Shown: positions 38,154 to 63,056, numbered from the stretch's first letter. The stretch is DNA of 64,000 nucleotides from Patescibacteria group bacterium (GCA_022711335.1 JAKLFF010000001.1:405754-469753), one strand, 5' to 3'. Numbers and translations are program-made. Notes: generated from the letters alone by a model not told the origin.

Positions 38154-38425
38154 AAATATTTCATAAACTAGAAAACTCGCTAGCCTAAGTATACCATACC
38201 CGAAATATAAAAGAATAGAGAAACGTGGATAAACTTGTTGATAATCTGTGATAACTGACGCAAAGCAGGCAACTCCCCCGATTAATAAATAGCATATTGG
38301 TAATTTTTGCATTAGTAAAGCCTGACGCATTTATGATTGGCAAGTTTTTCATTGACTTTGGCCCTAAAAACTGATAAACTTTTAATTGAATTGACGGATG
38401 TATTAATAATTTATCTAACAATATT

Positions 38426-39692: not shown

Positions 39693-39721
39693 TTCAAAGA
39701 TAATATTTAAATTCTAAATAC

Positions 39722-40210: not shown

Positions 40211-40340
40211 AAGAATTTAGAATTGGGAATTTCGAATTTAGAATGGGAATATGGAGCTTAGATCTTGAAGGAAATTAAAACCCAGTTTATTTTTAGTAGT
40301 TTTATTCTAAATTCTAAATACTAAATTCAAAATTCTATTT
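40210..40340. repeat. AATTCTAAAT-family intergenic inverted-repeat element
   Basis: AAGAATTTAGAATTGGGAATTTCGAATTTAGAATGGGAATATGGAG ... TTTTATTCTAAATTCTAAATACTAAATTCAAAATTC. Confidence 0.5.
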
Positions 40341-40342
40341 TT

Positions 40343-43410: not shown

Positions 43411-44647
43411 TTTTATCCTGCTTTTCTTAATCTACCTGCCTTTTCAGCTGGCGCTTAATCCAACCGAGGGTATCGATCTGGCTTCAATCAGGGTTATTAT
43501 CCTCCTCCTTTTTCTGCTATGGCTGGCTAAGGGACTCAAAAATAAAAAGGTGCTCATAAAGAACAATTCGAGCACAGTTTTAATTATTTTTTTTCTAGCT
43601 TTTAATTTAATTTCAATCGCTGTTTCGGGAAATTTAGACTGGTCAGTAAGGAAGCTCCTGTTTCTTTTTTCAATTTTTCCCGTTTATTTTGTGTTTTCTG
43701 ATATCATTTCCGATAAAAATAAGATGGAAAAAGCGGCAAAGGTTTTAGTCTGGAGCGGGAGCGCCGCCGCTTTTTTGGGAATCATCCAGTTTTTGTTACA
43801 ATTTTTGATAGGTCTTGAAAAAACTTATAAAATTTGGGCGAATTTCATCATCTGGCCTTTTTTGGGAAACAATTTCAGCGAAGCGGTTCTTAAAAATTCC
43901 AGCTGGCTTGTGAATATTTCAGGAAAAACGATTCTTAGGGCAACTTCTACTTTCCCAGATCCCCATATGCTTGCTTTTTTTCTAGGAATCTTGATTCCCT
44001 TGTCGCTGGGATTATTTCTAAAATCAAAAAAACCGCTATACCTGTTTTTTTTCACAGTTTTATTTGTTGGCGATGTCCTAACTTTTTCTAGAGGCGGATA
44101 TATTGGGCTTTTAGCGGGAGCTCTGGCAATGTTTTTTTCACTTTGGAAAAAATTCGGCCTAAAATATAAAATAACTTTATTTTTAGCAGCAGGGATGATA
44201 GCTGGCGTTCTGCTTATCCCCGGTCCGATTTCAACCAGATTTATTTCTAGTTTGCATCTGAATGAAGGTTCAAATGCCGGAAGAATTGAGATGTGGCAAA
44301 GAGCCGGAGAAATTATTTTAGACAAGCCGCTTTTTGGAACGGGGATTGGCAATTATCCCCTTGAAATCAAACCTGACGCCAGTTATCGCGATCCTATTTA
44401 TGCGCATAATACCTATTTGGATGTTGCTGTGGAAACAGGAATAGCCAATGCCATTATTTGGATAACGCTTCTGGCGGGCTCCGCTTTTATTTTTATAAAA
44501 AAAGCGAAAAAAGAGCCTTTCTTTTTTTGGCTGGCGATAAGTCTGGTTATTTTTTTTGCTCATTCTTTGGTTGAAACGGCTATTTATTCACCGGTTGTAC
44601 TGATATTGCTTTTGGTAATAATAAGTTTTACAAATGTTGAAGAGTAA
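43403..44647 (+). CDS. O-antigen ligase/polymerase-family membrane protein (Wzy_C-like)
   Basis: 414 aa polytopic with a large loop and ...FSRGGYIGLLAGALAMFF..., typical of the O-antigen ligase family. Confidence 0.5.
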   Translation: MFNFILLFLIYLPFQLALNPTEGIDLASIRVIILLLFLLWLAKGLKNKKVLIKNNSSTVLIIFFLAFNLISIAVSGNLDWSVRKLLFLFSIFPVYFVFSDIISDKNKMEKAAKVLVWSGSAAAFLGIIQFLLQFLIGLEKTYKIWANFIIWPFLGNNFSEAVLKNSSWLVNISGKTILRATSTFPDPHMLAFFLGILIPLSLGLFLKSKKPLYLFFFTVLFVGDVLTFSRGGYIGLLAGALAMFFSLWKKFGLKYKITLFLAAGMIAGVLLIPGPISTRFISSLHLNEGSNAGRIEMWQRAGEIILDKPLFGTGIGNYPLEIKPDASYRDPIYAHNTYLDVAVETGIANAIIWITLLAGSAFIFIKKAKKEPFFFWLAISLVIFFAHSLVETAIYSPVVLILLLVIISFTNVEE

Positions 44648-44696
44648 AATGTCCGCCAAAGGCGGATCCGCCTTTGGCGGAAAGAAAATATTTAAC

Positions 44697-45863
44697 ATGG
44701 AAAATCTAATTTATTTGGCAGTTATCTTTTTGCCGGCATATCTCGTCCGGTTTAAAATATTTGGTATCCCGACTAATATTCTAGAAATGCTGATTTTGAT
44801 AATTTTTATTAGATGGATTATTGGTTGTGGTAGAGACGCATTGCAATGCGTCTCTACGATAGGCTATAAAAAATATATTATACCGATATTTTTTATTTTT
44901 CTAGGGCTTGCCATTTCAACATTAGCTAACGGGGGGTATGCGGCAGGCCTTGGCATAATCAAAAGCTGGTTCTTTTTTCCAATGCTATTTGTTTTTTTGG
45001 CAAGTCAGATTTTAGATAAAGAAAAAATAATAAATGTTTATAAATCCCTTTATTTATCCGCTTTTTTAGTTTCATTGATATCTTTGGGATATTTGTTTTC
45101 GGGGCATATTACATATGATGGAAGATTGCAGGGGTTTTTCAATTCGCCGAATTATTTGGCGATGTACCTTGCGCCGGCGCTGATAATGTTGGTGCAAGTT
45201 CAAAGTTTTCCATCGAAGGCGGATCAGCTTATGGCTGAAAAGCTAAAAGTTTTGATTTTATTATCCGGATCAATTATATTAATTACTTTTTATTTTACTT
45301 ACTCTTACGCTGCTTGGATTTCTGTGATTTTGAGCCTAATTATGGTTTCTATTATTAAAAACAAAGCGCTGGTTAAAAATAAAACAATAATCATTTTAGT
45401 TTTGTTAGCTGCGTCGTTATTTATAATCCAGCTAAATAGTGAAAAATTAATTAATCTTAAAAATTATAATCGATCTTCCTTGGAATCAAGGATAATAATC
45501 TGGAAATCAGCTGAAAAAATGTTGGAGAATAACTGGGTTTTTGGAATCGGACCGGGGAATTTTCAGGAAAAATATCTTGAGTATCAAAAATATTACCCGC
45601 CTTATCTCGAATGGGCGGTTCCCCACCCGCACAACTTATACCTGGCTTTTTGGCTCTACGGAGGAGTTTTAGGGATTTTGGGATTTATCTTTCTGCTTGG
45701 TTTTTGGCTTGAGGATATTATTAAAAAAAGCGACAGCATAGTTAAATTTATCGCTTTTAGCATAATGTTCTATATTTTGATCCACGGAGCGATTGATACG
45801 AATTATTTCAAAAATGATCTGGCGATAATTTTTTGGCTGAATTTTCTGATTTTTAAAATATAA
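44697..45863 (+). CDS. O-antigen ligase-family membrane protein (WaaL/Wzy-like)
   Basis: Polytopic. ...HPHNLYLAFWLYGGVLGILGFIFLLG... is the O-antigen ligase signature region. The start was set at 44697 because the upstream part of the track ORF contains a 28-bp perfect palindrome (44651-44678). Confidence 0.55.
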   Translation: MENLIYLAVIFLPAYLVRFKIFGIPTNILEMLILIIFIRWIIGCGRDALQCVSTIGYKKYIIPIFFIFLGLAISTLANGGYAAGLGIIKSWFFFPMLFVFLASQILDKEKIINVYKSLYLSAFLVSLISLGYLFSGHITYDGRLQGFFNSPNYLAMYLAPALIMLVQVQSFPSKADQLMAEKLKVLILLSGSIILITFYFTYSYAAWISVILSLIMVSIIKNKALVKNKTIIILVLLAASLFIIQLNSEKLINLKNYNRSSLESRIIIWKSAEKMLENNWVFGIGPGNFQEKYLEYQKYYPPYLEWAVPHPHNLYLAFWLYGGVLGILGFIFLLGFWLEDIIKKSDSIVKFIAFSIMFYILIHGAIDTNYFKNDLAIIFWLNFLIFKI

Positions 45864-45908: not shown

Positions 45909-47069
45909 CTACAAGCTTATTTGATATAGTTTCCCGTCAAGCTTGTTTATAAAAAATAGCAATCCTTCATCTGGGGACAGAAATAAATCAGATGCGTCGA
46001 ATTGCGCGTTTATTTTTTGGAGCTCGGAAAGTTCGATTATTCTTTCTGATTGCCGGGATGCCATATCCATTTTCCAGAAAGTATCGCTGGTTTTTATTTT
46101 TCCATTGTTGTAATCGTTGGGAAACATGGCGGATTCAGGAAGGTTTCCCGGTAGGGCATAATATAAAATTTTATTGTTTTTGGACCAGGTGCATTTCGAG
46201 ACAAATGTAGGAATGCCCAGGTTTGAATATTCTCCCCCATTGTAGTTCACAATGGCTAGCTGTATTTTCGATCCGCCTTTGGCGTCGCTGTGGCTTATAA
46301 GAATGTTATTTCCAGAATTGTCCCAGAGATAGTCAGCTCCAAATTTTTCCTTAAACAGGGATTTTTTTTGGCCGCCGACAGTCGGAATTGATTCTAGGCT
46401 GGTTTGGGACATATTATCAGGCTTGTTCCAAAAAGAAACGCTTCCACTTTGAGGAATTGGTGCGACAGAAGCGTTTAAATAGGCCAAGTCAGCCAGTTTT
46501 TTCCAATTGCTTCCGTCGGGATCTGAAATATTAAGCGTAGCCTTTTTTCTTTTGGGATCAATATAAACGTAGAAGATCTTGTCGCTTGACTGGTTCCAAA
46601 CAGCTTCGCGGATATTTTTGTCAAGGGAATATCCTTTTCCAGCCGAATAATTGTAAGAAGAAAATCGAGTGCTGCTATCAGATTGGAAAAATTTTGAAAT
46701 AACTTTAGTTTTATCTGGCGACCAAAGAATATTTTTTAAATCAATTAAATCATTGGCAGAAAGAGTTTTTTTGTTTGTTCCATCAAGATCAATTTCATAG
46801 GCATGGCCATCTTTTTGCGAATAATATTTAATAGACAGTCCGTTGGGGGAAAGAACTGGGGATAAAACAGCTTCATCGGAAATGGCAGAAATTTTAGCGG
46901 TATCTTTTTCCGGTTGAGTGGCAGAAACGGGCTGTGCGGGATTTTCTTTTTTAACGGTCGGGGCGACTTCTTTGGGTTTATAAAAAGACAAGCGATAAAT
47001 GCCCAAAAAAAGGATAGAAACGATGAAAATAATAAGAGACGCAAAAAAAAGTTTTTTAAGAAGAGACAC
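45909..47069 (-). CDS. Membrane-anchored WD40-like beta-propeller (PD40/TolB-like repeat) protein; last gene of the T4SS-like operon
   Basis: N-terminal TM anchor, a Pro/Ala-rich linker, then repeated ...DG..I.Y......IW..D..G.N...L... blocks (e.g. KDGHAYEIDLDGTNKKTL; DKIFYVYIDPKRKKATLNISDPDGSNWKKL). Confidence 0.45.
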   Translation of the reverse strand: MSLLKKLFFASLIIFIVSILFLGIYRLSFYKPKEVAPTVKKENPAQPVSATQPEKDTAKISAISDEAVLSPVLSPNGLSIKYYSQKDGHAYEIDLDGTNKKTLSANDLIDLKNILWSPDKTKVISKFFQSDSSTRFSSYNYSAGKGYSLDKNIREAVWNQSSDKIFYVYIDPKRKKATLNISDPDGSNWKKLADLAYLNASVAPIPQSGSVSFWNKPDNMSQTSLESIPTVGGQKKSLFKEKFGADYLWDNSGNNILISHSDAKGGSKIQLAIVNYNGGEYSNLGIPTFVSKCTWSKNNKILYYALPGNLPESAMFPNDYNNGKIKTSDTFWKMDMASRQSERIIELSELQKINAQFDASDLFLSPDEGLLFFINKLDGKLYQISL

Positions 47070-47072
47070 TTT

Positions 47073-48407
47073 TTAGTTATTAAATCTTATATGAAGAATG
47101 CCGTTGGGCTCATTATAACCGTCGCAATTTTTTCTGAGTCGAGAGTTTGCGCTATCTGTACAAAGTTGAGCTACATTTAGCTGGCTGCTGTTATTATAGA
47201 CGCATTGTGCTTGGGTTGAGCTTGCTTCTACATCAAAAGTCAGTCCGTTATGAGATGAATGTCCAGTTTCATTTGCTCCTGTGATGGTGTTTATACCGCA
47301 AGTGTTTTTAACTGCAATAATCTCATTAATAGCATTATTTTCCATTCCATCAAGACTGGTGCATCTGGAATTATTGCGATCTGAACAATTTCCGGAACTT
47401 TTAATAGAAAAACCGGCATCAGTGAGAATTTTTCTTAGTGCTGCATCAGTTCCCGTACCCGTTGAAGTTGTTATAGCTCCTCCGCTGGTGGTTCCGCTTC
47501 CGGTCAGTGCTGAACTGGCTGTGTCGCAAGTGAACGTGTGCCAGCTGGATTTTCCAATTCCAAGCTGCGGATCGGCATTGGCCACCCAGGTTATCGTAAC
47601 ATCCACAATCAGCCAGGCGGCGAGAGTAATGGCAAATCCGACCAGGCTGGCCGTGAGAAAATCCTTAGCTTGAGTAATCATTTTCTCGCTTCCAGTGGAA
47701 ACCGTGTACATTATTCCGGAAATGAAGATAGCTACAATAGCTACGGTTACCAGGATATTTTTCCCCCATTCAATAAGATTCCAGATACCGATGATAAGAT
47801 GGCAAAGGGTGCAGGGGTCAGATTCTCCCCCGCAAGGGACAATGCCGGAAGAACTTGAAGAAGACGAAGTTTGGCTATATGTAATTTTCAATACGCTGCA
47901 GCATATTTTTCCGCTATCGCAATTCGAATCATATTCAGATACATGCATAGAATAACTGCCGCTGCAGCTGCTGCCACTCTGACACTCTCCCTGATCATAC
48001 AGAGTATCGTTATCTGGCACGCAAGTTGTTGAAGAGCTGCTGCTGGTTTTTGTTTCGGTGCAGCAAACTCCATCACTGCCTATTTTTGATACGCAATCAA
48101 GAGAATAATCAAGTTGTTTGCTGCAATTGCTTTTCTTTGCACAAATTGCTTCTCCAATATTTTTTTTTATTTCATTACTGTTGCATTGAAGAACACAACA
48201 ATATTCATCAGAACTACAGCCATATTTTCCTCCGGCAGTATCCAGGGGAATTTCTGCAGAAACAGCGCAGTTTTTATTTACAGAACAAGTCCCACCATAA
48301 ATATCTTCGCATTCAGAAGCAAAAGCAATTTGAAAAGAAAGAAAACTTCCAACAAATAACATTAAAAAGAAAATAAATATATTTATTTTTGATGTTTTTT
48401 TATGCAT
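47073..48407 (-). CDS. VirB2/TrbC-type (CPR 'T4SS pilin'-like) protein with N-terminal Cys-rich domain and C-terminal putative LAS/M15-like peptidase domain
   Basis: Signal peptide, then a Cys-rich region (ECEDIYGGTCS...CCVLQCNS...). The pilin core is PCGGESDPCTLCHLIIGIWNLIEWGKNILVTVAIVAIFISGIMYTVSTGSEKMITQAKDFLTASLVGFAITLAAWLIVD, two TM helices with a conserved Cys pair. The C-terminus has ...TGHSSHNGLTFDV, resembling the S-x-H-x-x-G-x-A-x-D zinc site of the VanY/M15 LAS peptidases. Confidence 0.55.
   Translation of the reverse strand: MHKKTSKINIFIFFLMLFVGSFLSFQIAFASECEDIYGGTCSVNKNCAVSAEIPLDTAGGKYGCSSDEYCCVLQCNSNEIKKNIGEAICAKKSNCSKQLDYSLDCVSKIGSDGVCCTETKTSSSSSTTCVPDNDTLYDQGECQSGSSCSGSYSMHVSEYDSNCDSGKICCSVLKITYSQTSSSSSSSGIVPCGGESDPCTLCHLIIGIWNLIEWGKNILVTVAIVAIFISGIMYTVSTGSEKMITQAKDFLTASLVGFAITLAAWLIVDVTITWVANADPQLGIGKSSWHTFTCDTASSALTGSGTTSGGAITTSTGTGTDAALRKILTDAGFSIKSSGNCSDRNNSRCTSLDGMENNAINEIIAVKNTCGINTITGANETGHSSHNGLTFDVEASSTQAQCVYNNSSQLNVAQLCTDSANSRLRKNCDGYNEPNGILHIRFNN
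47509..47856. repeat. ~350-bp near-identical duplicated segment (pilin core), copy A
   Basis: ~90% identical by eye to 50485-50830, e.g. GCTGAACTGGCTGTGTCGCAAGTGAACGTGTGCCAGCTGGATTTTCC... in both. Confidence 0.6.
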
Positions 48408-48464
48408 TTCTGGATTTATACTAGCATATTTTTTGACAAAAAAACAGGATTTTGAATGATGTCG

Positions 48465-49178
48465 CTATTTATGTCTTTTTTTCCAAAAAAAATAAATTGC
48501 TAAAATACCCAAAGTGAACGCAGCTGCTAATAAATATAAAAGGTGGTTTGCTTGGTTTTTGGTTTCAGATCTCGGGTTGCTTTCAACAATATTAAATTTA
48601 GAAAGAGTATTTTTTAGACTGCAATCGGATGGACAATTTTCCTGATTTTCCCCCTGGTCGCACTCGTTATTTTCATTGCAAGTTGCGACGGAAGATAGAT
48701 CAATGGAAAAAACTTTATTGCCCTTTTCATCATAAATATCCGCGAATTTTCCATTGGGGAAATAAGGAATATTTATGAGAAGGTTGCCTTTTGAAACTTC
48801 TTCACAGCCTCCTTTTATTTCCCCGGTCTTTTCATTGAATTCATCGCTACAAATAATTGTCTTGAGACTGCCCACAGGGAAATATCCCAAATTCTTTCCC
48901 TGAAAAGAAACAACTCTTCCATCAGGTTCTTCCTGATATATGCTGTTGCTGTAGACATACTCTCCGTTGGCTATTCGCAGCCCAATAGTTTTGAACTTGG
49001 AGTCGGTTTTCTGAATTGAAGCTGCGACAAACTTCGAAGTTGACAGTTGATCGGCAGCGGAATTTTTTCCCAAAATGGCAAAGAAGCAGGAAAAAATAAC
49101 AAAAAGAACCAAATTTATTTTTTTTATGTTTTTCATTTTTTCCTCCAACCTCTTTTCAAATTGATATTTTTTAAACAA
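48465..49178 (-). CDS. Hypothetical secreted protein with C-terminal TM anchor
   Basis: Signal peptide, a Cys-containing ectodomain (CNENNECDQGENQENCPSDCS), and a C-terminal hydrophobic helix + KKRHK. Confidence 0.4.
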   Translation of the reverse strand: MFKKYQFEKRLEEKMKNIKKINLVLFVIFSCFFAILGKNSAADQLSTSKFVAASIQKTDSKFKTIGLRIANGEYVYSNSIYQEEPDGRVVSFQGKNLGYFPVGSLKTIICSDEFNEKTGEIKGGCEEVSKGNLLINIPYFPNGKFADIYDEKGNKVFSIDLSSVATCNENNECDQGENQENCPSDCSLKNTLSKFNIVESNPRSETKNQANHLLYLLAAAFTLGILAIYFFWKKRHK

Positions 49179-49238
49179 ATCAACTTGCGAGGATAATACG
49201 AATTAATGAAAAAAGTCAAGTGAATTATGCAAAACTTT

Positions 49239-50963
49239 CTATTCATCAAGACTTTTAAGTTGGACATGCTGATTGGGATAACTCGAAATTGTTTTTTTGA
49301 TTATATATTCCTGCAGCGCGGAAAATGCCGAAGCTGTCAAATGGTTATTCATTAAACTGTTTTCTGACGATCTATAGCTGTCCTGTGTCAAACAGCCGGA
49401 ATGGCAGCCAGTTTCTATTGTTTTCCACTTGGTACATTCTTTGTTTGTTGTGCAGTTATAATTATGTTCTAGTTTGGCATCGTTAAATTTTTTATATGGG
49501 CTGTATTCATCTGATAGAAACGCAAAATTATGGCCAATCTGTTCATGGGCTAAAACATTAGGACTTATATTTCCGATGCAATAATAAGCATTATTTCCCA
49601 TATCGCCGTAAGCAGTTTTGCCACTGCCATTTTGGATCCATCCGTAACTAACATATTCCTTTTTTGATTCCACATCCGGGCAAATATTTGTTTGTGTTGT
49701 TGTAAACACTTTGTCTGATCGGTATACGCCGAAATTATCCGATAAATTATTAGCATTGGCTCCGCTGGATGCAAAAGAGACTTTCGTTTTGAAAGTGTCC
49801 GTTTGATCCGTATTATTTTCGTCCCACATTTCAACAGAATCTGAACAAGGCTGGCTTGATAAACCTATAAAATGTGTATTTATTCTAGCCAGAATTAGAA
49901 TAAACTTGGCGTCCTTGTTTCCATAAATAAACTGGCATCCGTCTGCATCGTCGCTGATAGATAGCGACTTTGATACGACAGCTGTTTCGGAGCTGCTTAT
50001 GACTATCCCAAAATCATAATCTCCCGCCAAAAGAGCGGTGCTGGTGTTATATTTTTCCGATTCATAGGGAAAAGTTATGGTGTAAGTTTTTGTGCTGGCT
50101 TTGGCGTCTTCGGAAATTATTTTGAAGTTCTGGCTGGTTGCATAGAATTTTTTGGAAACATTTCCTTCGGCTATGCCTATTCCTATGGCAAACTTTGTCG
50201 GATTTTTTACATTAGTGCAAACGCTTACTGAAAGGCTGCCTTTTTCCTTAATATCTTTTAGCGAGGCTGAAGATGGATTTAGTCCGCTTATAAAATAGCT
50301 GTTTTCTCCATCAGTTATTTCGGCGGCTTGTGCCTTATTTATACTGATAACTTCAGGCGCCAAACTTCGGTTATTCATAGTAAATTCAGGAGGGGTGGAT
50401 ATGACCTGAGTTTCTCCTGAAGGTACGGCGCAGGTTGGCGGCGCGGTGCTTTCAATTCCGGTACTGCTGCTCCCGCCTGATGCCGAACTGGCTGTATCGC
50501 AAGTGAACGTGTGCCAGCTGGATTTTCCGATTCCAAGCTGCGGATCGGCATTGGCCACCCATGTTATCGTAACATCCACAATCAGCCAGGCGGCGAGAGT
50601 AATCGCAAAACCAACGAGGCTAGCCGTAAGAAAAGCTTTAGCTTGAGTAATAAGCTTCTCATTTCCTGTAGAAATCGTATACATTATCCCGGAAATGAAG
50701 ATGGCGACAATGGCTACGGTTACCAGGATATTTTTCCCCCATTCAATAAGATTCCAGATGCCGACGATAAGATGGCAAAGGGTGCAGGGATCAGATTCTC
50801 CTCCGCAGGGAACAATGCCTGTGTGTGTAGATTCTGTGGTAGGATTTGTGACAGTAATCATTGGTCTGTTTCCGCTCATGTCAATCGGGTCGGAAGCAAA
50901 AACAGCATTACCGGAAAACAATGCGAATGCAAAAAAAAATACAAAAAAGAAGAATTTTTTCAT
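49239..50963 (-). CDS. VirB2/TrbC-type pilin-like protein fused to a C-terminal HExxH zinc-metalloprotease-like domain
   Basis: Signal peptide, then the pilin core PCGGESDPCTLCHLIVGIWNLIEWGKNILVTVAIVAIFISGIMYTISTGNEKLITQAKAFLTASLVGFAITLAAWLIVD. A ~400-aa extracellular domain ends in ...VLAHEQIGHNFAFLSDEY (HExxH). Confidence 0.55.
   Translation of the reverse strand: MKKFFFFVFFFAFALFSGNAVFASDPIDMSGNRPMITVTNPTTESTHTGIVPCGGESDPCTLCHLIVGIWNLIEWGKNILVTVAIVAIFISGIMYTISTGNEKLITQAKAFLTASLVGFAITLAAWLIVDVTITWVANADPQLGIGKSSWHTFTCDTASSASGGSSSTGIESTAPPTCAVPSGETQVISTPPEFTMNNRSLAPEVISINKAQAAEITDGENSYFISGLNPSSASLKDIKEKGSLSVSVCTNVKNPTKFAIGIGIAEGNVSKKFYATSQNFKIISEDAKASTKTYTITFPYESEKYNTSTALLAGDYDFGIVISSSETAVVSKSLSISDDADGCQFIYGNKDAKFILILARINTHFIGLSSQPCSDSVEMWDENNTDQTDTFKTKVSFASSGANANNLSDNFGVYRSDKVFTTTQTNICPDVESKKEYVSYGWIQNGSGKTAYGDMGNNAYYCIGNISPNVLAHEQIGHNFAFLSDEYSPYKKFNDAKLEHNYNCTTNKECTKWKTIETGCHSGCLTQDSYRSSENSLMNNHLTASAFSALQEYIIKKTISSYPNQHVQLKSLDE
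50485..50830. repeat. ~350-bp near-identical duplicated segment (pilin core), copy B
   Basis: Matches 47509-47856. Confidence 0.6.
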
Positions 50964-51013
50964 GGATATATAAATAATTTTATAAGTAAATCTAAAAATT
51001 CTACAAATTTAAA

Positions 51014-52126
51014 CTAAGTGGGACAGTTTTTATATACATTATAGTTAGCTATTATTCCATCGCAATAGTTTCCTCCGCAAGCGTTTCTATCTGTACAAGA
51101 TCCACAGTAGAGCTTAGCAGCCTTTCTAATTCCAGCTTCGCTATAATCGCCGCCGCTATCAAGACGGATTTTATTTGCTGCACATTTAAGTGCGTCTTGC
51201 CGATTAAATTTGCTTCCTGAGCACCCATATCTCTTGTCATACCATGTTCCGTCTGTGAATTGCATTGCTCCTCCAGCCCCATAAAGATTATTTTTATTAC
51301 AAGCGCTTGGATTAGACATAGCAGGAGAACATTCTCTTAGCATAAAAGAAGCTAAGAGGGCAGTAGGAACTCCGCCACCGGCATTATTGAGCTCGTTTTT
51401 CAGAGAATCATTCAGATCACTGCATGTTCCAGTTGCACGTACGGCTGTCCCGCTTCCGCATCCTGCAATACATTCTGATGTCCAGCTTTGATTTCCTCCG
51501 GCATCCCGACACCATTTTTCACACTCGGCCTGATTTTGAGAAGAACTTGCACCTGACATGCTAATTGTTTTTATCTTCACCAGTTCCGGATTAATGACAT
51601 AAAGAATAAGATAAGCAGAGAGGGCCATAAGCACTCCGATTATGGCGTCGGTAATAATTCCCTTGGCTTTTTCCATTGAAGCGTTGTTTCCGGCGCTGGT
51701 GATGTACATAAAACCGCCGATCATAATCATAAGTAGCGCAGAAAGGCCGATAGTCCAAATGCCGAAATTATAAACTGCCAGAACATAGGTCGAAAAATCT
51801 CCGGTAGCGTCAAATCCCGGTATTTTTTCCATGGGAGTATAATCAAAAGATGCTGAATCTGAACTGCCGGTGCCAGTCTTAGGTTGGCTAGCGCTGGGAT
51901 TGGTTTTTGAGGCATCCGTTGATCCTGAAGGGTCATTTTTTGTAGTATAGTTTGAAACACCGCTGCTTGAGGAATCATTTTCTGGAGTATAATTTGAATC
52001 GCCTCCAAAATCTTCCGCAAAGGCCTGATTTGAATAGCTGAATAAAAAACAAAGAGACAAAACGAACAGGGCGAAAACAAAGATTGAAAATAACAAAACC
52101 GGATATTTTTTTATTTTAGTATTCAT
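51014..52126 (-). CDS. VirB2/TrbC-type pilin-like protein fused to a C-terminal lytic-transglycosylase-like (VirB1-like) Cys-rich domain
   Basis: Signal peptide and a Ser/Thr-rich linker, then the pilin core YVLAVYNFGIWTIGLSALLMIMIGGFMYITSAGNNASMEKAKGIITDAIIGVLMALSAYLILYVINP. The C-terminal domain has LRECSPAMSN...LYGAGGAMQFTDGTWYDKRYG, an E-x-S...G-x-MQ-x...Y pattern of family-1 SLT lytic transglycosylases, and many Cys. Confidence 0.55.
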   Translation of the reverse strand: MNTKIKKYPVLLFSIFVFALFVLSLCFLFSYSNQAFAEDFGGDSNYTPENDSSSSGVSNYTTKNDPSGSTDASKTNPSASQPKTGTGSSDSASFDYTPMEKIPGFDATGDFSTYVLAVYNFGIWTIGLSALLMIMIGGFMYITSAGNNASMEKAKGIITDAIIGVLMALSAYLILYVINPELVKIKTISMSGASSSQNQAECEKWCRDAGGNQSWTSECIAGCGSGTAVRATGTCSDLNDSLKNELNNAGGGVPTALLASFMLRECSPAMSNPSACNKNNLYGAGGAMQFTDGTWYDKRYGCSGSKFNRQDALKCAANKIRLDSGGDYSEAGIRKAAKLYCGSCTDRNACGGNYCDGIIANYNVYKNCPT

Positions 52127-54794
52127 TTTTATTTAAATTAGGAAAAAACGACAGAAGCACTTTGGAAAAAACGAGCATAAAAAAAGCTGTCAGAACCATT
52201 CGGATGAGGAGAATAATATATTCCGGAGCAGCCGAATACATAGAAGCCATAATTTTTTTTGGCGTATTTTTACCGGCGCTCTGAATATCAGATATTGACC
52301 CGACAAAACTGATTTGGACATTTGTTCCGATTTTCTTTTCATAAAATTCATTTATAGGCACGCCCCAATATTTAGAAAGAGCTCTTTTGGTGTTTTTGTC
52401 TTGAGTGTAAACTAGGCCTACGCCAACGCTATATGACTCACTGATTGCTTTTTCAGAAAGCGTTATTGTTCCGTCGCTGGATATTGAATATCCATAGCTG
52501 GAAGCGTTGTTTGTGTTGATTTCATATCCGTCAACATACCAGGAATAATCGCTGGCTGCCGGAGAAATTCCATAAAATTCAGCTTTTAACTTTATAGGTG
52601 TCTCAGAAAGAGCCGAAAAATTTGTCTGGCTATAATCCGGCCAATACTTTCCGTCAAGATCGATATAATATCCTAAAAGATTGGCATTGCAGACGGAAGT
52701 GTCGCCTGAAATTATTTTAACTTCCGGATCAGCCACTTCGAATGTCCTTACGAGATTTATTTTTTCTCCTTTGCTGTTTGTTGCAGAAACTTCTACGGTA
52801 TAACGGTGCCCGTTTTCTTCCAGGATCGGCAGATAAGCAGTTGATCCAACTTCCGAACTTCCAATGGGAACCAGAGCCTTTCCGTCGGCCGTCCAAATAA
52901 AATCAGTGAAATCCGACTTATTTATAGAAAGAGCTACTAGTTCATTCTTGGAGACATAACAAATGGCGTCTATTTCTCCATTGGTAACGCATAACTCTTT
53001 ACTTTTCGGGCTTAGCGATAGGTCAGAAGAAACGCTTGTTCCATAGGCCTTTATTCGTTGAGTTATATTTGAAACAGGAATAATAATTTCAGCGTAGCCT
53101 TTTCTTAGCGTGGAAGACGCTGAAATTCCTTCAGAAAGAGTAAGTTTTACGCGCAGATATTTTTTAAGATTGGGAATGTTGAGCCTTAATTTGAGAGAAT
53201 TAAGATTAAGTCCGGACAGTTGGATATTTTCAGGGAGGCGCGACTTTACGATTCTATCCCACGAATCAGGGTTGGGAGCATCGCTTTCAAATAATTCCCA
53301 GGTGTATTTGAGATAATCTTCACTTTGGGCGTTGGTTATGGACGATTGGACAGAAAGTTCGTCACCATCTTTATTATCAGGATCGTTCATGGGAAATTCA
53401 GGAGTATAGGAGAGTGATATATCCATTTTTTCCTTAGCGCCTCCTCCTTCAGAGGGATCAAAAAAATTTCCATAAAGGCAGCTATTTATGTCAGAAGCCT
53501 TTTTTATTTCAGAAAGAGAAACTCCCTGCTCATCCAAATTGACAATATCATCGAATCCGGTACAAGTTATCCCGTTGTATTGGCCAAGATAATTGGGCCC
53601 ATTAGGACAAGTGGTTGTTTGAGCATAGGCGGCGCCGGCAGTTTCTTCATAGTTTCCGTCACAATTGCTGTCTTCAATATCTGTTTTATGGGTTGTCGTT
53701 CTTATGGTTGCGATGTTTGCTACTTGAGATATCATTGTTTTTTCTGTGGTAGTGGTTGTTTGCACCGTGGCCGAACTTCCATCCGGACAGGTGCTTCCTG
53801 TCCCGACACTTACAGATTTAGATGTGCTGGTATCGGGATAGTCTTCAATATCCGTATCTCCCAAACTGCACTTGTTGTTTACTAGAGCCCACATTATTTT
53901 AAATGAAGAATCTGATTCTTGGGTCGGCTCAATGGAAATTCCTTCAATAACAACTCCAATTTCATCTCCTTCCTGATAATTCCAGGAAAAAGTATTCATT
54001 CCTAAGCCGACAACATTAGCCTCGTCGCCATTGCCTGTGTCTGCCGTATCAGGATCTTTAGGATCAGTGCGAAAAAATTCTTCTTCTCCCGAGCCGTATG
54101 AATCATCTCCAGCCTCAAAATCATGGCCTGGAGCCTCGGCAAAAAGATGTTTATTGCAGGAAATTTCATATTCATCCCCAGTGTCAACGTCGTGAATAAA
54201 ACAATGATCGCCAGTTTTTGTTCCTTTTTCTTTTTGATCATCGCCTCCCCAGATAGCCTTATATTCTTTTCCTCCGCCAGAATTATAATTTGCTTCAGCC
54301 CATTCAAAGCCATCTCCGGCAAGAATTCTTGCTGCTTTCACTTTATAGTCATTTATGTCGATTTCTCCATTTCCATCAAAGTCGCATTTTTCTTTTTGTG
54401 TTCCGGATGGAGAAGTATTTTTCTCATCTGGGCATTCGTCTGGTTTCAAATACCAGGTGAAATAAAGATTTTCAGCGGTATTTAGAAAATAGGTCGGAGT
54501 GGCGACTGCGCTGACTTTTTTTCCGGAAACGGGATTTTCAGGATTTAGGGAGATTTCAACCTGGGGCTGCTGTTTTTTTCTTCGGGAGACATTAGCGGTT
54601 TGAATTGTGTATCTAAGTTCGCTTTGATCGACTCCCATTTTGTCAAAAGCCTGATCCATAGCGGTTCCGACAACGTCTCCGGCTATGCCGCTTAAATCAA
54701 ACCAGTCTGCCTGTGCTCGGGGAGCCAAAAAAAAGGCAAAACAATCAGCGATGGCAAATGCAATCAATAATAATTTTTTAATTCTATTGTTCAT
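52116..54794 (-). CDS. Large secreted surface protein with C-terminal membrane anchor (T4SS-operon component, function unknown)
   Basis: 892 aa: signal peptide, a long hydrophilic Thr/Ser/Asp-rich ectodomain, and a DFDGNGEIDINDY calcium-binding-like loop. The C-terminal hydrophobic helix is YIILLIRMVLTAFFMLVFSKVLLSFF. Confidence 0.5.
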   Translation of the reverse strand: MNNRIKKLLLIAFAIADCFAFFLAPRAQADWFDLSGIAGDVVGTAMDQAFDKMGVDQSELRYTIQTANVSRRKKQQPQVEISLNPENPVSGKKVSAVATPTYFLNTAENLYFTWYLKPDECPDEKNTSPSGTQKEKCDFDGNGEIDINDYKVKAARILAGDGFEWAEANYNSGGGKEYKAIWGGDDQKEKGTKTGDHCFIHDVDTGDEYEISCNKHLFAEAPGHDFEAGDDSYGSGEEEFFRTDPKDPDTADTGNGDEANVVGLGMNTFSWNYQEGDEIGVVIEGISIEPTQESDSSFKIMWALVNNKCSLGDTDIEDYPDTSTSKSVSVGTGSTCPDGSSATVQTTTTTEKTMISQVANIATIRTTTHKTDIEDSNCDGNYEETAGAAYAQTTTCPNGPNYLGQYNGITCTGFDDIVNLDEQGVSLSEIKKASDINSCLYGNFFDPSEGGGAKEKMDISLSYTPEFPMNDPDNKDGDELSVQSSITNAQSEDYLKYTWELFESDAPNPDSWDRIVKSRLPENIQLSGLNLNSLKLRLNIPNLKKYLRVKLTLSEGISASSTLRKGYAEIIIPVSNITQRIKAYGTSVSSDLSLSPKSKELCVTNGEIDAICYVSKNELVALSINKSDFTDFIWTADGKALVPIGSSEVGSTAYLPILEENGHRYTVEVSATNSKGEKINLVRTFEVADPEVKIISGDTSVCNANLLGYYIDLDGKYWPDYSQTNFSALSETPIKLKAEFYGISPAASDYSWYVDGYEINTNNASSYGYSISSDGTITLSEKAISESYSVGVGLVYTQDKNTKRALSKYWGVPINEFYEKKIGTNVQISFVGSISDIQSAGKNTPKKIMASMYSAAPEYIILLIRMVLTAFFMLVFSKVLLSFFPNLNKNEY

Positions 54795-55465
54795 CTGTTT
54801 ATGCCGTATATTATATAACTGTTTACAATTATTATAAACAGCAGGCCCGAAAGATAAGGAAAAATAAACGATTTACTTTTGTAGGCCAAAAAGCCATTGG
54901 TAACCGAGAGAGCAATCGGCGCGGAAAATTGCCAGAAAAAACCGTTGCTTAAGGAGGAAAACAGGATAAATACTGCTGCCTGAATCAGAATTGACCAATG
55001 TCCGAATTTTTTGGAGAGCGCGGACAACATGAATCCTCGATAGAAAAATTCCTGGGAAAACAGCAATATATTCATAAGAAGCAGCTCATAAAGGACAAAA
55101 AATGAAAACTGGCCTATCGTATTGCTTGGCAAAGCGTATCTTTTTTGCAGCGAGGTGTAGCTGAACAGAAAATAATAAAAAATAATCAGGCTTATGAATA
55201 AAATAGCTCCGAACAGCATGCCCGTCTTCTTGTCTTTTATGTTCAATCCAAAATCCGAAAGATTTTTTTTGAGAACTATTTTTATATAGAGTGTTGGAAG
55301 TACAACTAGAAAAAAAATATTTCTAATGATGAGCTGAATAAGGCTGCCATTGTCAACCGGGAAAATGACAGACAAAATAAGGCAGGAAAAAAGCAAAAAC
55401 AAATCTATTAGCAATTCTCTATTTTCGCAGCATTTCTTGTTAAGGGGTATTGTAAAAAACGCCAT
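54791..55465 (-). CDS. CPBP (CAAX-protease/Abi)-like polytopic membrane protein, possibly degenerate
   Basis: Polytopic. SQEFFYRGF resembles CPBP motif 1 (EExxxR) with Q for E, followed by KFGHW.... The other motifs are not clearly conserved. Confidence 0.35.
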   Translation of the reverse strand: MAFFTIPLNKKCCENRELLIDLFLLFSCLILSVIFPVDNGSLIQLIIRNIFFLVVLPTLYIKIVLKKNLSDFGLNIKDKKTGMLFGAILFISLIIFYYFLFSYTSLQKRYALPSNTIGQFSFFVLYELLLMNILLFSQEFFYRGFMLSALSKKFGHWSILIQAAVFILFSSLSNGFFWQFSAPIALSVTNGFLAYKSKSFIFPYLSGLLFIIIVNSYIIYGINR

Positions 55466-58002: not shown

Positions 58003-58689
58003 TTAATTTAGTTCCAATTTGCCGCTGTCAGCAAGGCCGACTGAATTATAAACGCTGGGATTGTATGAATTGAACAATAACTCAATTATTTCCTGGGTTT
58101 TGAGCGGAACGATCCGAACCCCGATTCCAGAAAGAGCGGCAGTTACATGGTCTACTCTTTGAAAAAGCTGGCTTTTGTAAGTTTCAAAATTTTCTCTTTT
58201 TTCCAGGATATTTTTTCTGGGATTAATCAGGCTTCCGATGTTCGAAAAAAATCCTTTTTCTTGATTTTCAATCGGAGAAAAGGGAATGATAATATAGAAA
58301 TTTTTGTCCATTATATTGGATGAGGATGTCAACTGGCTGATGAAATTTTTATATTCGGAAATTTGAAACCTCAAAAGCTCATTGGGCTGCTGCTTTTCAT
58401 GCTGGGAAAGAAAATCCAGATAGTTTTCCATATTCAATTTTCGCGAACTTATGAGAATTTGAAGGGGAAAATCTATGGAATTGAGAAAATTTTGGTATTG
58501 GCTGACAATTGCTTCCTGCTCGTCGGTAGATTTTAGCTCAAAATTGATTGCAGAGACAGCCAAAACTGCCCGAAGCGCTCCGTTTTTTAGAACAATAACG
58601 TCTTCCCTGATCTCTGCGACATCCAGATATTTTTGGGTAGCGGCAGTGGAAGTTTCAGCCGTTATTTTTTTTGAGTGTAATATTTCCAT
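58003..58689 (-). CDS. VirB4 N-terminal-domain-like protein (probable detached first part of VirB4)
   Basis: Hydrophilic 228 aa. VAEIREDVIVLKNGALRAVLAVSAINFELKSTDEQEAIVSQYQNFLNSIDFPLQILISSRK matches the conserved start of the CagE/TrbE/VirB4 N-terminal domain (...l.dGs...v..v.g..f.l.s.eeq......f..fLn.l....qi...s.r). 228 + 605 aa is about the length of a full-size VirB4. Assigned from memory of family patterns. Confidence 0.4.
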   Translation of the reverse strand: MEILHSKKITAETSTAATQKYLDVAEIREDVIVLKNGALRAVLAVSAINFELKSTDEQEAIVSQYQNFLNSIDFPLQILISSRKLNMENYLDFLSQHEKQQPNELLRFQISEYKNFISQLTSSSNIMDKNFYIIIPFSPIENQEKGFFSNIGSLINPRKNILEKRENFETYKSQLFQRVDHVTAALSGIGVRIVPLKTQEIIELLFNSYNPSVYNSVGLADSGKLELN

Positions 58690-58693
58690 AAAT

Positions 58694-59086
58694 CTATTTT
58701 AAATCCAGTATTTTTGAAATTTCTTCTATTTTTTGGCTGTTTAATTCTTTTTTCTTTAGCGGTCTAGGCTTATTTTTGGCTGTTTTTCTGACTGGCACGT
58801 CATTTTCTGCAGCCCTTTTCCATATATACATACGAGGGCGGAAAATAAAAGAAATTGACGATCCGATAAAAGTAATCAGAGAGACGTTGTAAGGACGATA
58901 AAAAGCTAAGGCTCCGAAAATAATTCCTACGATTACGCAAGAAATGACAAAGGCGGACGTATCGAGCAGATTAAAAAGAACAAGAAGGACTACTCCTCCG
59001 AGCGCCAGCCAGCCCAGCTGCTTGGCAGTGAGCGGACCTACGATCTTGTCTTCGATGTCTATAAATTGTGGAACATTGAACAGCAT
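58694..59086 (-). CDS. PrgI-family (VirB3-like) small membrane protein
   Basis: 130 aa: FIDIEDKIVGPLTAKQLGWLALGGVVLLVLFNLL + a second TM, matching the PrgI/VirB3-like pattern (a charged motif, then 2 TM). It sits directly upstream of the VirB4-related ORFs. Confidence 0.55.
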   Translation of the reverse strand: MLFNVPQFIDIEDKIVGPLTAKQLGWLALGGVVLLVLFNLLDTSAFVISCVIVGIIFGALAFYRPYNVSLITFIGSSISFIFRPRMYIWKRAAENDVPVRKTAKNKPRPLKKKELNSQKIEEISKILDLK

Positions 59087-60791: not shown

Positions 60792-63056
60792 TTAGGCTAA
60801 ATTATTCAAATACAAATCTTTTTTAATTACTTTCAATGTGCTTTGTCCATTAATTCCAAGAGGAGTGGTTGAAGCTTTAAAATAACTGATGATATCTCTT
60901 TTTGTTTGATTGCTACTAATATTTTGGACAATTTCTTTGATTTTTCCTGAATTTATATTTTCAGTGAAGGAATTTCTTTGTGATGTGGTTAGTGAACCAA
61001 AATCAAGTTCTTTTAGGGTATCTTTGTTTCCGGTTTTGAAAATATTTTCCGTAAAGCTATCATCGGCTATTTTGCCCCAAACAGCAGTGTATGCTTTTTG
61101 TATATTTTTATGGACCTCATCAGTGTTCAAATTGAATTTTCCACTGGTAGCAAGTTTGTCGAGAGAGTTTTCGATATTCTTTTTGTAAGCTTCTCCTTTT
61201 CCTTTGGCTTCCAAAAGAGTGTCCATGTTTATAGCTCGTTCACTAAAGGCTAATTCCAAAATATTTTCATTTGCAAACACATTGCTAGACCATTTTTTAG
61301 GATCGGACTGGTTGCTGTTTAGGTATGCTTTTATGGCTGATTCCCAATTCGCTGGATCTGATTTTAGGTGCGAGAAAGCTGTTTCTGGATCATAGGCCTT
61401 GAGTTTGTTGTTGATCTGATTGAATACTTGGCTATCTGTTCCAAATTCTTTGCGCATTTGTTCGTAAGCTATTTTGTCAACGCCTGAAGCGTAAAGCGCA
61501 TTTTTATTAGCCAATTCCTTAAGAGCGGCTGCTCTTACAAATTTGTCCTTGGAAGAAGCAAGTTGCCTTAGTTCGTCAGGAGTTTTGTTTTCCATATCAT
61601 TTCTTTTGGATTCATTTTCCACTTTTTGGGACAAATCTCTTTGATATCTAAGCCGGGCATCTTTTGAAGCTACTCCAAAAAGCCGATCTTGCTGGCTTCC
61701 GGCGAAAGTTCCTAAGCGATTCCTCCACCAGTCCTTTTGAGCTTCTTTTCGTCTGGTTCTATAAGATTCCCAGGCACCCATCGCGAATCCGGCCGGAGTG
61801 AGGGTTTTTCCGGCCCAGCCCATAAACTTCTGTCCCCTTCCCACCACCGCGCTGGCGCCGGCAATGCTCATAGTTTGGGCGGTGCCGATGCCGATCCAAA
61901 GAATCACTATAGGGATGGCGAAAAATGAAGCGGCAGCAATAAACCCAGGATCACTGGCACTTTGTCCTGTGATTGCATTCATCGAGCCTTTTGTATAGCT
62001 AATAGCCCCCATCATTCTGGTAGCAACAACGAGCATAAAAAGCATAATTGGACCAAAAAAAGCATATTTAAAGAGCATATCCCACCACTTGCTGGCATAT
62101 GAGGAAAGAAAAGGAACAATTGATCCGACAAAAGCAATGGAGGAAAAAATAACCAAAATAGTGAGTGCGACAAGTCGTATTATAAAGAGAATGGCAATGA
62201 TTAGAAGGGTAACTGCCAGAATAAAACTAAAAATTACGGCAGCAATAAGAAATGACAGATCGGCACCGATTTTTTGGGGCGGGTGAAGTATTAAATCCAA
62301 ATTAGAATTTTTAGCGATTTCCGCAAACCATGAACCAGCACTTTTATCAAAACCTAATGCTTTTGCAAAATAGTACATTATAATATTAGAAAAATCGATA
62401 ATGACTCTGGCAATTGGGAAACTGAAATTAACAAGAAGCGCCATGATAATCAGCGTTAGGAGAATTTTTTTGTAGTTGAATTTTTCAACCTGGAAAACTG
62501 TGCAAAAAGCAGAAAAAAGAAGAACTAAAATAAAAGAGATATTGAGAGTGTCTCGCACCATACCCCATATTTGATAAATTATAGGGTTGCTCATAACATC
62601 AGTAAAATTTTTTGCATCTAGAATCCAAATAAAAAGAGTTGAAGACACTTCCAACATTTTCTCTAAAAACAGAAGTACATAAAGCAATAGGCACTTTACA
62701 AAATTAATTAGAACGCTAAGACTTATAATATCTCCCATTCCCATTCCACAAACAGTGTCTCCCATCTGTTGTTGAACTATCTCGCCAGTTGTTTTTTTGA
62801 TTTCATCTGATCCATTATCGAATTTAAAATTAGCTGTTTGATTATTGGAATTACAGTATTGAGCACAAGCTTCTTTCGTGGGCTGATCAACTGGGGTTAA
62901 ATAGATAAAATTGCCTCGTTCCCAATCTTCTTTTGAAGCGCATTCACATGATTTAGCATGAACATGAGTAGAAAATCCAAAACCAGCCGCGAAGACAAAA
63001 ATGAAAATCGCAGCCAGAATAAGTTTTTGTTTTTTCTTTATATTTTGATTAAACAT
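60792..63056 (-). CDS. VirB6/TrbL-like polytopic inner-membrane protein with N-terminal Cys-containing ectodomain and long cytoplasmic C-terminal tail
   Basis: 754 aa: signal peptide + CxC...C...C domain, at least 6 TM helices in the middle (…ILAVTLLIIAILFIIRLVALTILVIFSSIAFVGSIVPFL…), and a ~300-aa hydrophilic tail. This architecture is typical of VirB6/TrbL channel subunits. Confidence 0.5.
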   Translation of the reverse strand: MFNQNIKKKQKLILAAIFIFVFAAGFGFSTHVHAKSCECASKEDWERGNFIYLTPVDQPTKEACAQYCNSNNQTANFKFDNGSDEIKKTTGEIVQQQMGDTVCGMGMGDIISLSVLINFVKCLLLYVLLFLEKMLEVSSTLFIWILDAKNFTDVMSNPIIYQIWGMVRDTLNISFILVLLFSAFCTVFQVEKFNYKKILLTLIIMALLVNFSFPIARVIIDFSNIIMYYFAKALGFDKSAGSWFAEIAKNSNLDLILHPPQKIGADLSFLIAAVIFSFILAVTLLIIAILFIIRLVALTILVIFSSIAFVGSIVPFLSSYASKWWDMLFKYAFFGPIMLFMLVVATRMMGAISYTKGSMNAITGQSASDPGFIAAASFFAIPIVILWIGIGTAQTMSIAGASAVVGRGQKFMGWAGKTLTPAGFAMGAWESYRTRRKEAQKDWWRNRLGTFAGSQQDRLFGVASKDARLRYQRDLSQKVENESKRNDMENKTPDELRQLASSKDKFVRAAALKELANKNALYASGVDKIAYEQMRKEFGTDSQVFNQINNKLKAYDPETAFSHLKSDPANWESAIKAYLNSNQSDPKKWSSNVFANENILELAFSERAINMDTLLEAKGKGEAYKKNIENSLDKLATSGKFNLNTDEVHKNIQKAYTAVWGKIADDSFTENIFKTGNKDTLKELDFGSLTTSQRNSFTENINSGKIKEIVQNISSNQTKRDIISYFKASTTPLGINGQSTLKVIKKDLYLNNLA

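Follow-up and report, generated by a model that had tools for sequence, protein, structure and literature searches.

Pilin-like genes with enzyme-like C-terminal domains at a type IV secretion locus of a Patescibacteria group bacterium

Introduction

Arrays of VirB2-like pilin genes encoded with a type IV secretion system (T4SS) have been described in Patescibacteria (Wang et al., 2023, PMC10633639; Quinonero-Coronel et al., 2025, PMC12102498). In this study, we analysed 64,000 nucleotides (nt) from a Patescibacteria group bacterium (GCA_022711335.1 JAKLFF010000001.1:405754-469753), hereafter the window, which hold a locus of this kind with three pilin-like genes, here named A, B and C. The locus shares with the described arrays the Pfam pilin family PF18895, several divergent pilin genes, a monoderm-type set of VirB4, PrgI and VirB6 and a chromosomal position near dnaA, with no relaxase seen. 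The described arrays have been treated as small pilins, whereas here every pilin gene has a C-terminal domain of 130-420 residues and one of them, A, also has N-terminal Cys-rich modules. We consider it probable, at about 0.6, that A, B and C belong to a modular family of Patescibacteria T4SS pilins (VirB2-like) whose hairpin carries enzyme-like heads acting on the wall or envelope at the T4SS. The parts are known (pilin hairpin, SLT, LAS), and it is their combination, with an enzyme-like domain on all three pilin-like genes, for which no published description was found. There is no mention of pilin-hydrolase fusions in the two papers above or in a review (PMC12857230), and the literature search found no paper describing these pilin fusions. 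It must be noted that T4SS_pilin (PF18895) and SLT_3 (PF18896) bear consecutive Pfam numbers, which suggests that the curators had seen this pairing.

Wall-cutting domains held at the membrane and encoded in a T4SS locus, SLT domains included, are also found in the VirB1-type hydrolases PrgK of pCF10 and TraG of pIP501. PrgK has in addition a LytM domain, a member of the LAS group, and VirB1 and PrgK remodel their own wall. PrgK and TraG place several hydrolase domains behind one N-terminal anchor, whereas in the proteins reported here each pilin hairpin bears one domain, located C-terminal to the hairpin, and the anchor consists of a signal peptide plus the hairpin. Moreover, no CHAP domain was seen here.

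A further parallel is offered by the proteolytic flagellins (flagellinolysin; PMC5595980), in which a family of filament subunits bears a metallopeptidase on its exposed part. They differ from A, B and C in belonging to the flagellum, in having the enzyme inserted in the middle of the subunit and in their proven assembly, whereas the present proteins belong to a T4SS, are terminal fusions and are only putative filament subunits.

Results and Discussion

Pilin cores and linkage to the secretion system

The three open reading frames (ORFs) that an earlier note on this stretch had described as pilins fused to putative wall-degrading domains exist at the coordinates it gave, all on the minus strand, and all the motifs quoted for them were found (SSHNGLTFDV in A, AHEQIGHNFAF in B and REC...GGAMQF in C). 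The interval 47073-52126 holds four genes in total, and the fourth, of 237 amino acids (aa) and located between A and B, had gone unmentioned there.

As the same note had proposed, all three proteins have a two-helix core of the VirB2/TrbC type. Each matched the Pfam model T4SS_pilin, below its gathering score, with expectation values (E) of 4.6e-5, 7.9e-4 and 7.7e-5 for A, B and C, respectively. A hydropathy scan located two hydrophobic helices in each protein (residues 211-240 and 249-276 in A, 72-101 and 109-137 in B, 115-146 and 156-183 in C), joined by a short polar loop, and the signal-like N-termini end in AFA/VFA. Relatives with the same cores match T4SS_pilin with E values as good as 2.2e-11, four of them also match TrbC (PF04956), and a plain pilin in a related locus (L010) scores 43.2 bits to T4SS_pilin. 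Within the window, the pilin core was found in these three ORFs only. Small pilins have ~100-170 aa and end soon after helix 2; A, B and C continue beyond it for ~170, ~440 and ~190 residues, respectively.

The genomic context is that of a T4SS. The VirB4 gene lies 3.9 kilobases (kb) upstream of the pilin genes on the same strand, and PrgI-, TraC- and VirB6-like genes are also encoded. Within the same-strand run, 3-60 nt separate neighbouring genes, and C starts before the 892-aa gene upstream of it has ended. Given this spacing, A, B and C are suggested to form one transcription unit with the VirB4, PrgI-like and VirB6-like genes.

Two statements about cysteines had to be corrected. The Cys motif reported as common to the three cores, PCGGESDPCTLCHL, is present in A and B only, while the core of C is free of Cys and begins with FDYTPMEKIPG. 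Furthermore, all three proteins are Cys-rich and not two of them, with 28 (A), 14 (B) and 15 (C) Cys residues. The cores of A and B form a direct repeat of 300 nt with 88% identity, in which helix 1 is preceded by PCGGESDPCTLCH and helix 2 is followed by TFTCDT. In cores of the A/B type, four conserved Cys flank the hairpin (C192, C199, C202 and C294 in A); they could form disulfides linking both outer ends, in a manner resembling the head-to-tail cyclisation of TrbC and VirB2 pilins.

The N-terminal part of A (residues 32-188) is made of three modules of ~45-50 residues with six Cys apiece, spaced as C..G.C...C...C....CC, and its orthologue in a second strain (contig L001) has two. Similar modules were recognised by eye in several copies in the relative P0015 and once on a plain 174-aa pilin (L010:8434-8958). 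On the exposed N-terminus, these modules may serve for binding. In C, a 4-Cys module (ECEKWCRDAGGNQSWTSECIAGC, residues 201-224, ~51455-51526, minus strand) joins the hairpin to the C-terminal domain; the L010 orthologue has two copies of this module, and one like it occurs in a protein (P0018) of the LAS family to which the domain of A belongs.

C-terminal domain of gene C

The lytic-transglycosylase-like domain proposed for C was recovered. Ten relatives of the domain were found, and all ten are on pilin scaffolds. In the domain, R264-E265-C266, G285-G286-x-M-Q-F290, T294 and Y340 are invariant. A scan of species-representative genomes yielded two orthologues from Patescibacteria and six proteins from Actinomadura or Spirillospora, and the locus with 72% identity in this domain comes from a genome labelled Patescibacteria. 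The comparison of the domain profile with one of the Actinomadura proteins (L012) by hhalign gave a probability of 95% and an E value of 3.5e-8 over 70 columns, with E265 aligned on the Glu of the ET motif and the GAGGxMQFxxxTW stretch in register. A closely similar Actinomadura protein (L014) matches SLT_2 (5e-14) and SLT (1.3e-9) above threshold, and L012 falls just below it. Therefore, the link between C and SLT is one step removed.

Direct matches were weaker. C itself gave no Pfam SLT match at E <= 10 and none in NCBIfam, and among C and its 10 orthologues three of the 11 sequences matched Pfam SLT, all sub-threshold (E >= 0.0063). No PDB sequence match was obtained for the domain, either as a single sequence (E <= 10) or as a family profile. 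Against the catalytic domains of five Escherichia coli enzymes (Slt70, MltC, MltD, MltE and MltF), hhalign placed E265 on the catalytic Glu, in a weak alignment (probability 31%, P 5e-4, 40 columns). The domain shares with family 1 lytic transglycosylases (SLT/SLT_2: Slt70, MltC/D/E/F) the Glu (R-E-C here, E-S/E-T there), the GxxQ(F/I)xxxTW stretch and the Tyr, in the same order, and differs from them by the absence of a Pfam SLT match, by its many Cys of disulfide-forming type and by its position behind a pilin hairpin. Judged by its sequence, the C-terminus of C is a divergent domain of the SLT superfamily with its catalytic Glu intact.

C-terminal domain of gene A

The C-terminus of A is a LAS-fold domain of a new sequence family. 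An exhaustive homologue search with this domain retrieved 352 representative clusters (50% identity); a word-index homologue search found no relatives. In an alignment of 30 members, E64, G66, H70, D76, E117, H123 and three Cys (alignment numbering) are invariant, and H67 and H121 are near-invariant. The corresponding polar residues of A are E380, H383, H386, D392, E433 and H439, among which the zinc-ligand candidates H386, D392 and H439 are invariant in the family. With hhalign, the GH.SH..G...D stretch of the family was placed on residues 103-121 of MepA, so that H386 and D392 fall on H113 and D120 (P 0.0077, 18 columns), two zinc ligands of MepA. The same comparison with E. coli DdpX, a VanX homologue, gave nothing.

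The earlier assignment of this domain as M15/LAS-like thus stands for the LAS fold. It does not stand for Pfam M15 membership, and the first His of the HxH motif is missing in A. None of the 30 family members matched any Pfam peptidase family, M15/VanY included (E <= 1), and the domain of A, searched as a single sequence (PDB E <= 10) or as a family profile, matched nothing relevant in Pfam, NCBIfam or the PDB sequences. A sequence membership of A in M15 was ruled out on the absence of a Pfam M15 match. It must be noted that the spurious PDB hits in the profile searches of A, B and C were to a G protein-coupled receptor and de novo TIM barrels. With respect to the known LAS metallopeptidases (MepA/M74, VanX, VanY, phage M15, Zn DD-peptidase, VldE and the hedgehog N-domain), the family differs in having no match to their Pfam or PDB sequence families, in an extra N-terminal Cys-bridged subdomain, in being almost exclusively pilin-fused and, in the branch of A, in the Ile that replaces the first His of HxH.

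C-terminal domain of gene B

The case of B is different. The HExxH motif of the proposed zincin-like domain is present; outside the motif, no homology in support of the assignment was found. Only two relatives of the domain were found among 5.8 billion protein clusters, 99% and 50% identical, both of them pilin fusions, and a scan of a genome collection found none. The 50%-identical relative (P0012) has an added Big_2 domain. H473, E474, H478, D485, E486 and Y487 are invariant in all three sequences. B shares the signature HExxGHxFxxLxDEY, whose DEY holds the third ligand in M64, with 3p1v and 4df9, two solved structures of peptidase family M64, to which the immunoglobulin A protease of the Clostridium ramosum type also belongs. 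The M64 sequences used were those of 3p1v and 4df9, which a consensus query matched in PDB at E ~1e-80.

The hhalign comparison of B with M64 gave a score of 26.5 (P 0.0034), in an alignment extendable in the same order to 197 columns with 26% identity, while 100 column shuffles of the comparison scored 13.8 +/- 2.4 with a maximum of 20.0. BLASTP gave an E value of 6e-4, and the best local matches in the flanks follow the same order. Nevertheless, the similarity is gone without the motif, and no Pfam (M64 included), NCBIfam or PDB sequence match was found for the domain. The match to M64 was rejected as proof of homology, since the shuffle control without HExxH..DEY was at chance level. The evidence for B is therefore an extended active-site signature that falls short of demonstrated homology, given that its flanks score no better than shuffles.

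Distribution of the fusions

The fusions recur beyond the window. The pilin core is present in 58 of the 64 representatives with a full-length LAS domain, and among the six without it several are short (135-232 aa) and may be fragments. T4SS_pilin was matched by 93 of 148 LAS-family representatives. A metagenome scan with six closer LAS-family sequences as the query retrieved 454 loci, and 22 of the 30 loci of at least 12 kb contain a LAS-pilin fusion. In four loci (L040, L054, L074 and L086) the fusion gene is the first of a tandem array, followed by 3-5 further ORFs with a pilin core, mostly of <200 aa. The C-domain family occurs on both kinds of core (P0005 is of the Cys type), and so does the LAS family, which indicates that heads and hairpins have been shuffled.

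In 22 of 80 metagenome loci, the LAS-pilin gene is immediately followed by a homologue of the 386-aa gene that lies after A in the window, and the profile of this gene family matches the TolB beta-propeller in PDB (E 1.4e-5). A gene for a CAAX/Rce1-like protease is kept in the L001 locus and has a homologue in one of the 80 LAS-pilin loci.

In many relatives the match to the LAS profile covers its first ~95 positions only, and some of them have no pilin core (P0057, P0091, P0136, P0153 and others); such relatives are also present in soil loci (L067, L079, L082 and similar). In addition, single members of the 148 scanned carry PG_binding_1, SLT, PG_binding_3 or 3D domains. These observations suggest that other bacteria have a related branch outside the pilins which is tied to peptidoglycan.

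Mosaicism between strains

The contig L001, from another sample, has 99.5% identity with the window over the T4SS genes, and it was used for comparison between strains. Synonymous divergence (dS) in the flanking genes is 0.002 (892-aa gene) and 0.012 (386-aa gene). The 892-aa protein is 100% identical in L001 despite its mosaic neighbours, and it has orthologues of 894 and 904 aa at the same position in L010 and in the more distant contig L102. In the pilin cores, dS rises to 0.31-0.65, with a ratio of nonsynonymous to synonymous divergence (dN/dS) of 0.02-0.10. The LAS domain of A is under purifying selection (dN/dS 0.087), while its N-terminal modules show a nonsynonymous divergence (dN) of 0.42 and a length difference of 53 aa.

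The C-terminal domain of C has no DNA similarity at all to its counterpart in L001. There, the pilin at the position of C has the same scaffold with an SLT_3 domain (PF18896, E 2.8e-6, above threshold) and is followed by a membrane-anchored 168-aa gene. In L102, the pilin at this position is of the SLT_3 type as read from its sequence and is followed by a membrane-anchored gene of 173 aa. These cassettes (L001:8212-9974 and L102:8581-9979) stand in place of positions 51014-51556 of the window, which hold the SLT-like domain and no extra gene. The swap looks like a cassette exchange with a co-varying neighbour gene. The full layout in L102 is SLT_3-type pilin, 173-aa gene, B-type pilin, 247-aa gene, LAS pilin and 392-aa gene, the last at the same position as the TolB-like gene of the window. 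A gene of ~240 aa follows the B-type gene in all three genomes compared (237 aa in the window, 226 in L001 and 247 in L102). The mosaic pattern points to recombination and cassette exchange on the exposed parts and to purifying selection that acts on the hairpin and the LAS head.

Proposed function and points against it

In the reading of A, B and C as T4SS pilins with enzyme-like heads, a Sec signal peptide would export each protein and the two-helix hairpin would insert into the membrane with both ends outside. VirB2, TrbC and TraA pilins have both ends outside the membrane, and by analogy with VirB2 and TraA the N-terminal modules and C-terminal heads would be extracytoplasmic, which agrees with the many Cys in these parts. 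The heads would be held at the secretion machine or on any pilus that is built. The C head, as a lytic transglycosylase of the SLT superfamily, would cut glycan strands, and the A head, zinc-peptidase-like by its LAS fold, would cut or bind peptide stems. The B head has an M64-like zincin signature. Together, the heads would have peptidoglycan and the envelope proteins around the T4SS as their substrates and so provide the wall cutting that VirB1, PrgK or TraG provide elsewhere.

The architecture, the fold or homology of A and C, the linkage to the T4SS, the wide distribution of LAS-pilin fusions and the mosaicism between strains were computed directly. The topology, catalysis, polymerisation into a pilus and the target we infer. 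For the target, we estimate the own wall at about 45%, the host wall at about 35% and others at about 20%. With regard to the breach of a host wall suggested in the earlier note, a remodelling of the own wall is a rival of equal merit. The hypervariability and the conserved downstream partners lean to an interaction with the host, and the parallel with PrgK and TraG leans to self-remodelling.

Several points weigh against this reading. The T4SS_pilin scores of A, B and C (23.9, 19.9 and 23.1 bits) are just under the gathering score of 26.6 bits, and VirB4 was found within 10 kb in only 8 of the 30 large metagenome loci. Heads of 130-400 residues on every subunit may clash with a helical pilus, and no plain pilin that might serve as the major subunit was found among the ORFs of the window. 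With the motif removed, the N-terminal flank of B scored 10.6 against M64 (shuffles 11.6 +/- 2.4) and the C-terminal flank 10.5 (shuffles 10.4 +/- 2.3), and AlphaFold on the catalytic region of B, with a 2-sequence alignment, reached a predicted local distance difference test (pLDDT) value of 30.2, too low for a fold to be read from it. A has I437 at the near-invariant first His of HxH and a His-Asp loop that is 2 residues shorter; it is therefore possible that A is attenuated or merely binds. Finally, hypervariability between strains fits a surface or host interaction better than a housekeeping role of the VirB1 type.

Alternative explanations

Close to the view of the earlier note, in which the displayed hydrolases would suit a breach of a host wall, the fusions might polymerise into, or cap, a T4SS pilus whose heads cut the host wall at contact, which we regard as possible and somewhat unlikely. 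It is favoured by the outside position of both ends of VirB2-type pilins, by the several loci in which the LAS-pilin gene stands first in a row of plain pilin genes, where a minor or initiating subunit would be expected, and by exposed parts that are hypervariable between strains with 99.5%-identical flanking genes. Proteolytic flagellins (PMC5595980) give it a precedent for an enzymatic filament subunit. The bulky heads and the absence of a plain pilin in the window speak against it, and the T4SS pilus of Patescibacteria is itself putative.

It is also conceivable, and we think unlikely, that the genes are polymorphic effector-immunity cassettes, in which the hairpin would be a handle for the delivery of toxic heads by VirB4 and the T4SS, and the membrane-anchored gene downstream a protector. 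T4SSs that kill bacteria by the delivery of peptidoglycan hydrolases, which are paired with immunity proteins, have been described (PMC6536674). The SLT_3 heads of L001 and L102, which share the C-position scaffold and come with a 168- or 173-aa gene, both absent from the window, would fit such pairs, as would the ~240-aa gene after B in all three genomes and the TolB-like propeller gene directly after the LAS-pilin gene in 22 loci. However, the protector role of the downstream genes is putative, C of the window has no such partner gene, the propeller could equally be a structural partner, and the comparison covers few strains.

The missing His of A is also what would be expected if the LAS domain, and perhaps others, bound wall ligands without cutting, like the hedgehog N-domain, with a role in attachment. 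The first His of HxH is catalytic in enzymes of the LytM/MepA type, and it is also missing in close relatives of A (the L102 orthologue, P0018 and P0062); the N-terminal Cys-rich modules, in turn, look like binding modules. We find this quite doubtful: A keeps its other conserved polar residues (E380, H383, H386, D392 and E433/H439), 27 of the 30 family members keep the full HxH, C keeps its catalytic Glu and B its HExxH.

Lastly, VirB2 and TrbC pilins are trimmed at the C-terminus, and with a CAAX/Rce1-like gene inside the cluster and in the L001 locus, and an identical segment right after helix 2 in A and B, the proteins might be pro-proteins whose hairpin is an export or anchor device and whose heads are cleaved after helix 2, e.g., at the conserved WHTFTCDTASSA, perhaps by the CAAX-like protease, to give soluble enzymes, which we think very improbable. 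The cleavage site is putative, and a homologue of the CAAX gene was found in only 1 of 80 LAS-pilin loci.

Organization of the locus

The features of the locus are provided in Table 1. Upstream of C, the order of genes is 892-aa, CAAX/Rce1-like, 160-aa, VirB4-like, TrsD/TraC-like, PrgI/VirB3-like, 533-aa and VirB6-like. The region equivalent to the N-terminus of VirB4 (TrsD/TraC-like) is a separate gene upstream of the ATPase gene. The CAAX/Rce1-like gene overlaps the next gene by 4 nt, and its product could process the pilin fusions.

Table 1. Annotated features of the window, with positions counted from its first nucleotide.
Feature	Coordinates	Strand	Match or remark
Gene A, 444 aa: signal peptide, three N-terminal 6-Cys modules, Cys-type T4SS_pilin hairpin, C-terminal LAS-fold domain	47073..48407	-	
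A residues 32-188, N-terminal Cys-rich modules, predicted extracellular, hypervariable between strains	47844..48314	-	
A residues 189-300, pilin core: PCGGESDPCTLCH, helix 1, polar loop, helix 2, TFTCDT	47508..47843	-	
A residues 317-444, LAS-fold (hedgehog/DD-peptidase-like) domain	47076..47459	-	
237-aa gene between A and B, hydrophobic segments at both ends	48465..49178	-	
Gene B, 574 aa: signal peptide, Cys-type pilin hairpin, middle region, C-terminal zincin-motif domain	49239..50963	-	
B residues 49-160, pilin core, protein sequence near-identical to the A core	50484..50819	-	
B residues 343-574, conserved C-terminal domain, H473-E-x-x-G-H478...D485-E486-Y487, M64-resembling signature	49242..49937	-	
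Gene C, 370 aa: signal peptide, low-complexity segment, Cys-free pilin hairpin, 4-Cys linker module, SLT-superfamily domain (predicted)	51014..52126	-	
C residues 94-190, pilin core, FDYTPMEKIPG type	51557..51847	-	
C residues 232-370, lytic-transglycosylase-like (SLT superfamily) domain	51017..51433	-	
386-aa membrane-anchored TolB-like beta-propeller gene, 3 nt downstream of A	45909..47069	-	
892-aa secreted protein with C-terminal anchor, overlaps start of C	52116..54794	-	no family match
CAAX/Rce1-like intramembrane protease	54791..55465	-	PF02517, E 2.5e-6
VirB4-like ATPase (CD1110 family), 605 aa	56006..57823	-	NCBIfam E 1.8e-113
TrsD/TraC-like 228-aa protein, equivalent to VirB4 N-terminal region	58003..58689	-	
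PrgI/VirB3-like 130-aa membrane protein	58694..59086	-	PF12666 recorded for the product in the 99.5%-identical contig
VirB6-like polytopic membrane protein	60792..63056	-	weak match to CD3337/EF1877 family, E 5.7e-4
dnaA	36786-38330	-	~9 kb beyond the 386-aa gene

The genes dnaA, rnpA and yidC and a gene for a KH/R3H protein adjoin the T4SS cluster (36786-38330 and 38928-45863); the secretion locus therefore sits near the replication origin. T4SS loci near dnaA have been reported in some Patescibacteria (PMC12102498). A polysaccharide-synthesis block, with a flippase, two glycosyltransferases and two Wzy-like proteins, is also located beside the cluster. A scan of the whole window against Rfam found no RNA family, and the look-up of a 299-aa ORF at the window edge gave no record.

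Significance for Patescibacteria

No secretion machinery other than the T4SS with its pilin array has been shown to be required for epibiotic life in a cultivated Patescibacterium. According to published surveys, most Patescibacteria with VirB2 homologues seem to be without a wall-cutting enzyme of the VirB1 type, an absence for which wall hydrolases on a pilin scaffold would account. If hydrolases do ride on this scaffold, the VirB1 gap would be filled, and they would be candidates for how these tiny cells open their own wall or that of the host. In addition, a large LAS-fold family without a Pfam model has been defined, with at least 352 clusters (50% identity) and 454 metagenome loci, almost always pilin-fused and with a frequent TolB-like partner, and the pilin genes form a recombination mosaic inside an otherwise near-identical pair of strains. 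As a broader and tentative idea, which we consider rather unlikely, the pilin hairpin might be a universal carrier of exchangeable heads (LAS, two lysozyme-like kinds, zincin and probably more), often with a membrane-anchored partner downstream such as the TolB-like propeller or the 170-aa protein, so that the pilus, or the pool of pilins that VirB4 extracts, would form an enzymatic, strain-variable set of drills or effectors against the host envelope. If true, this would explain both the pilin arrays essential for epibiotic growth and the apparent absence of VirB1.

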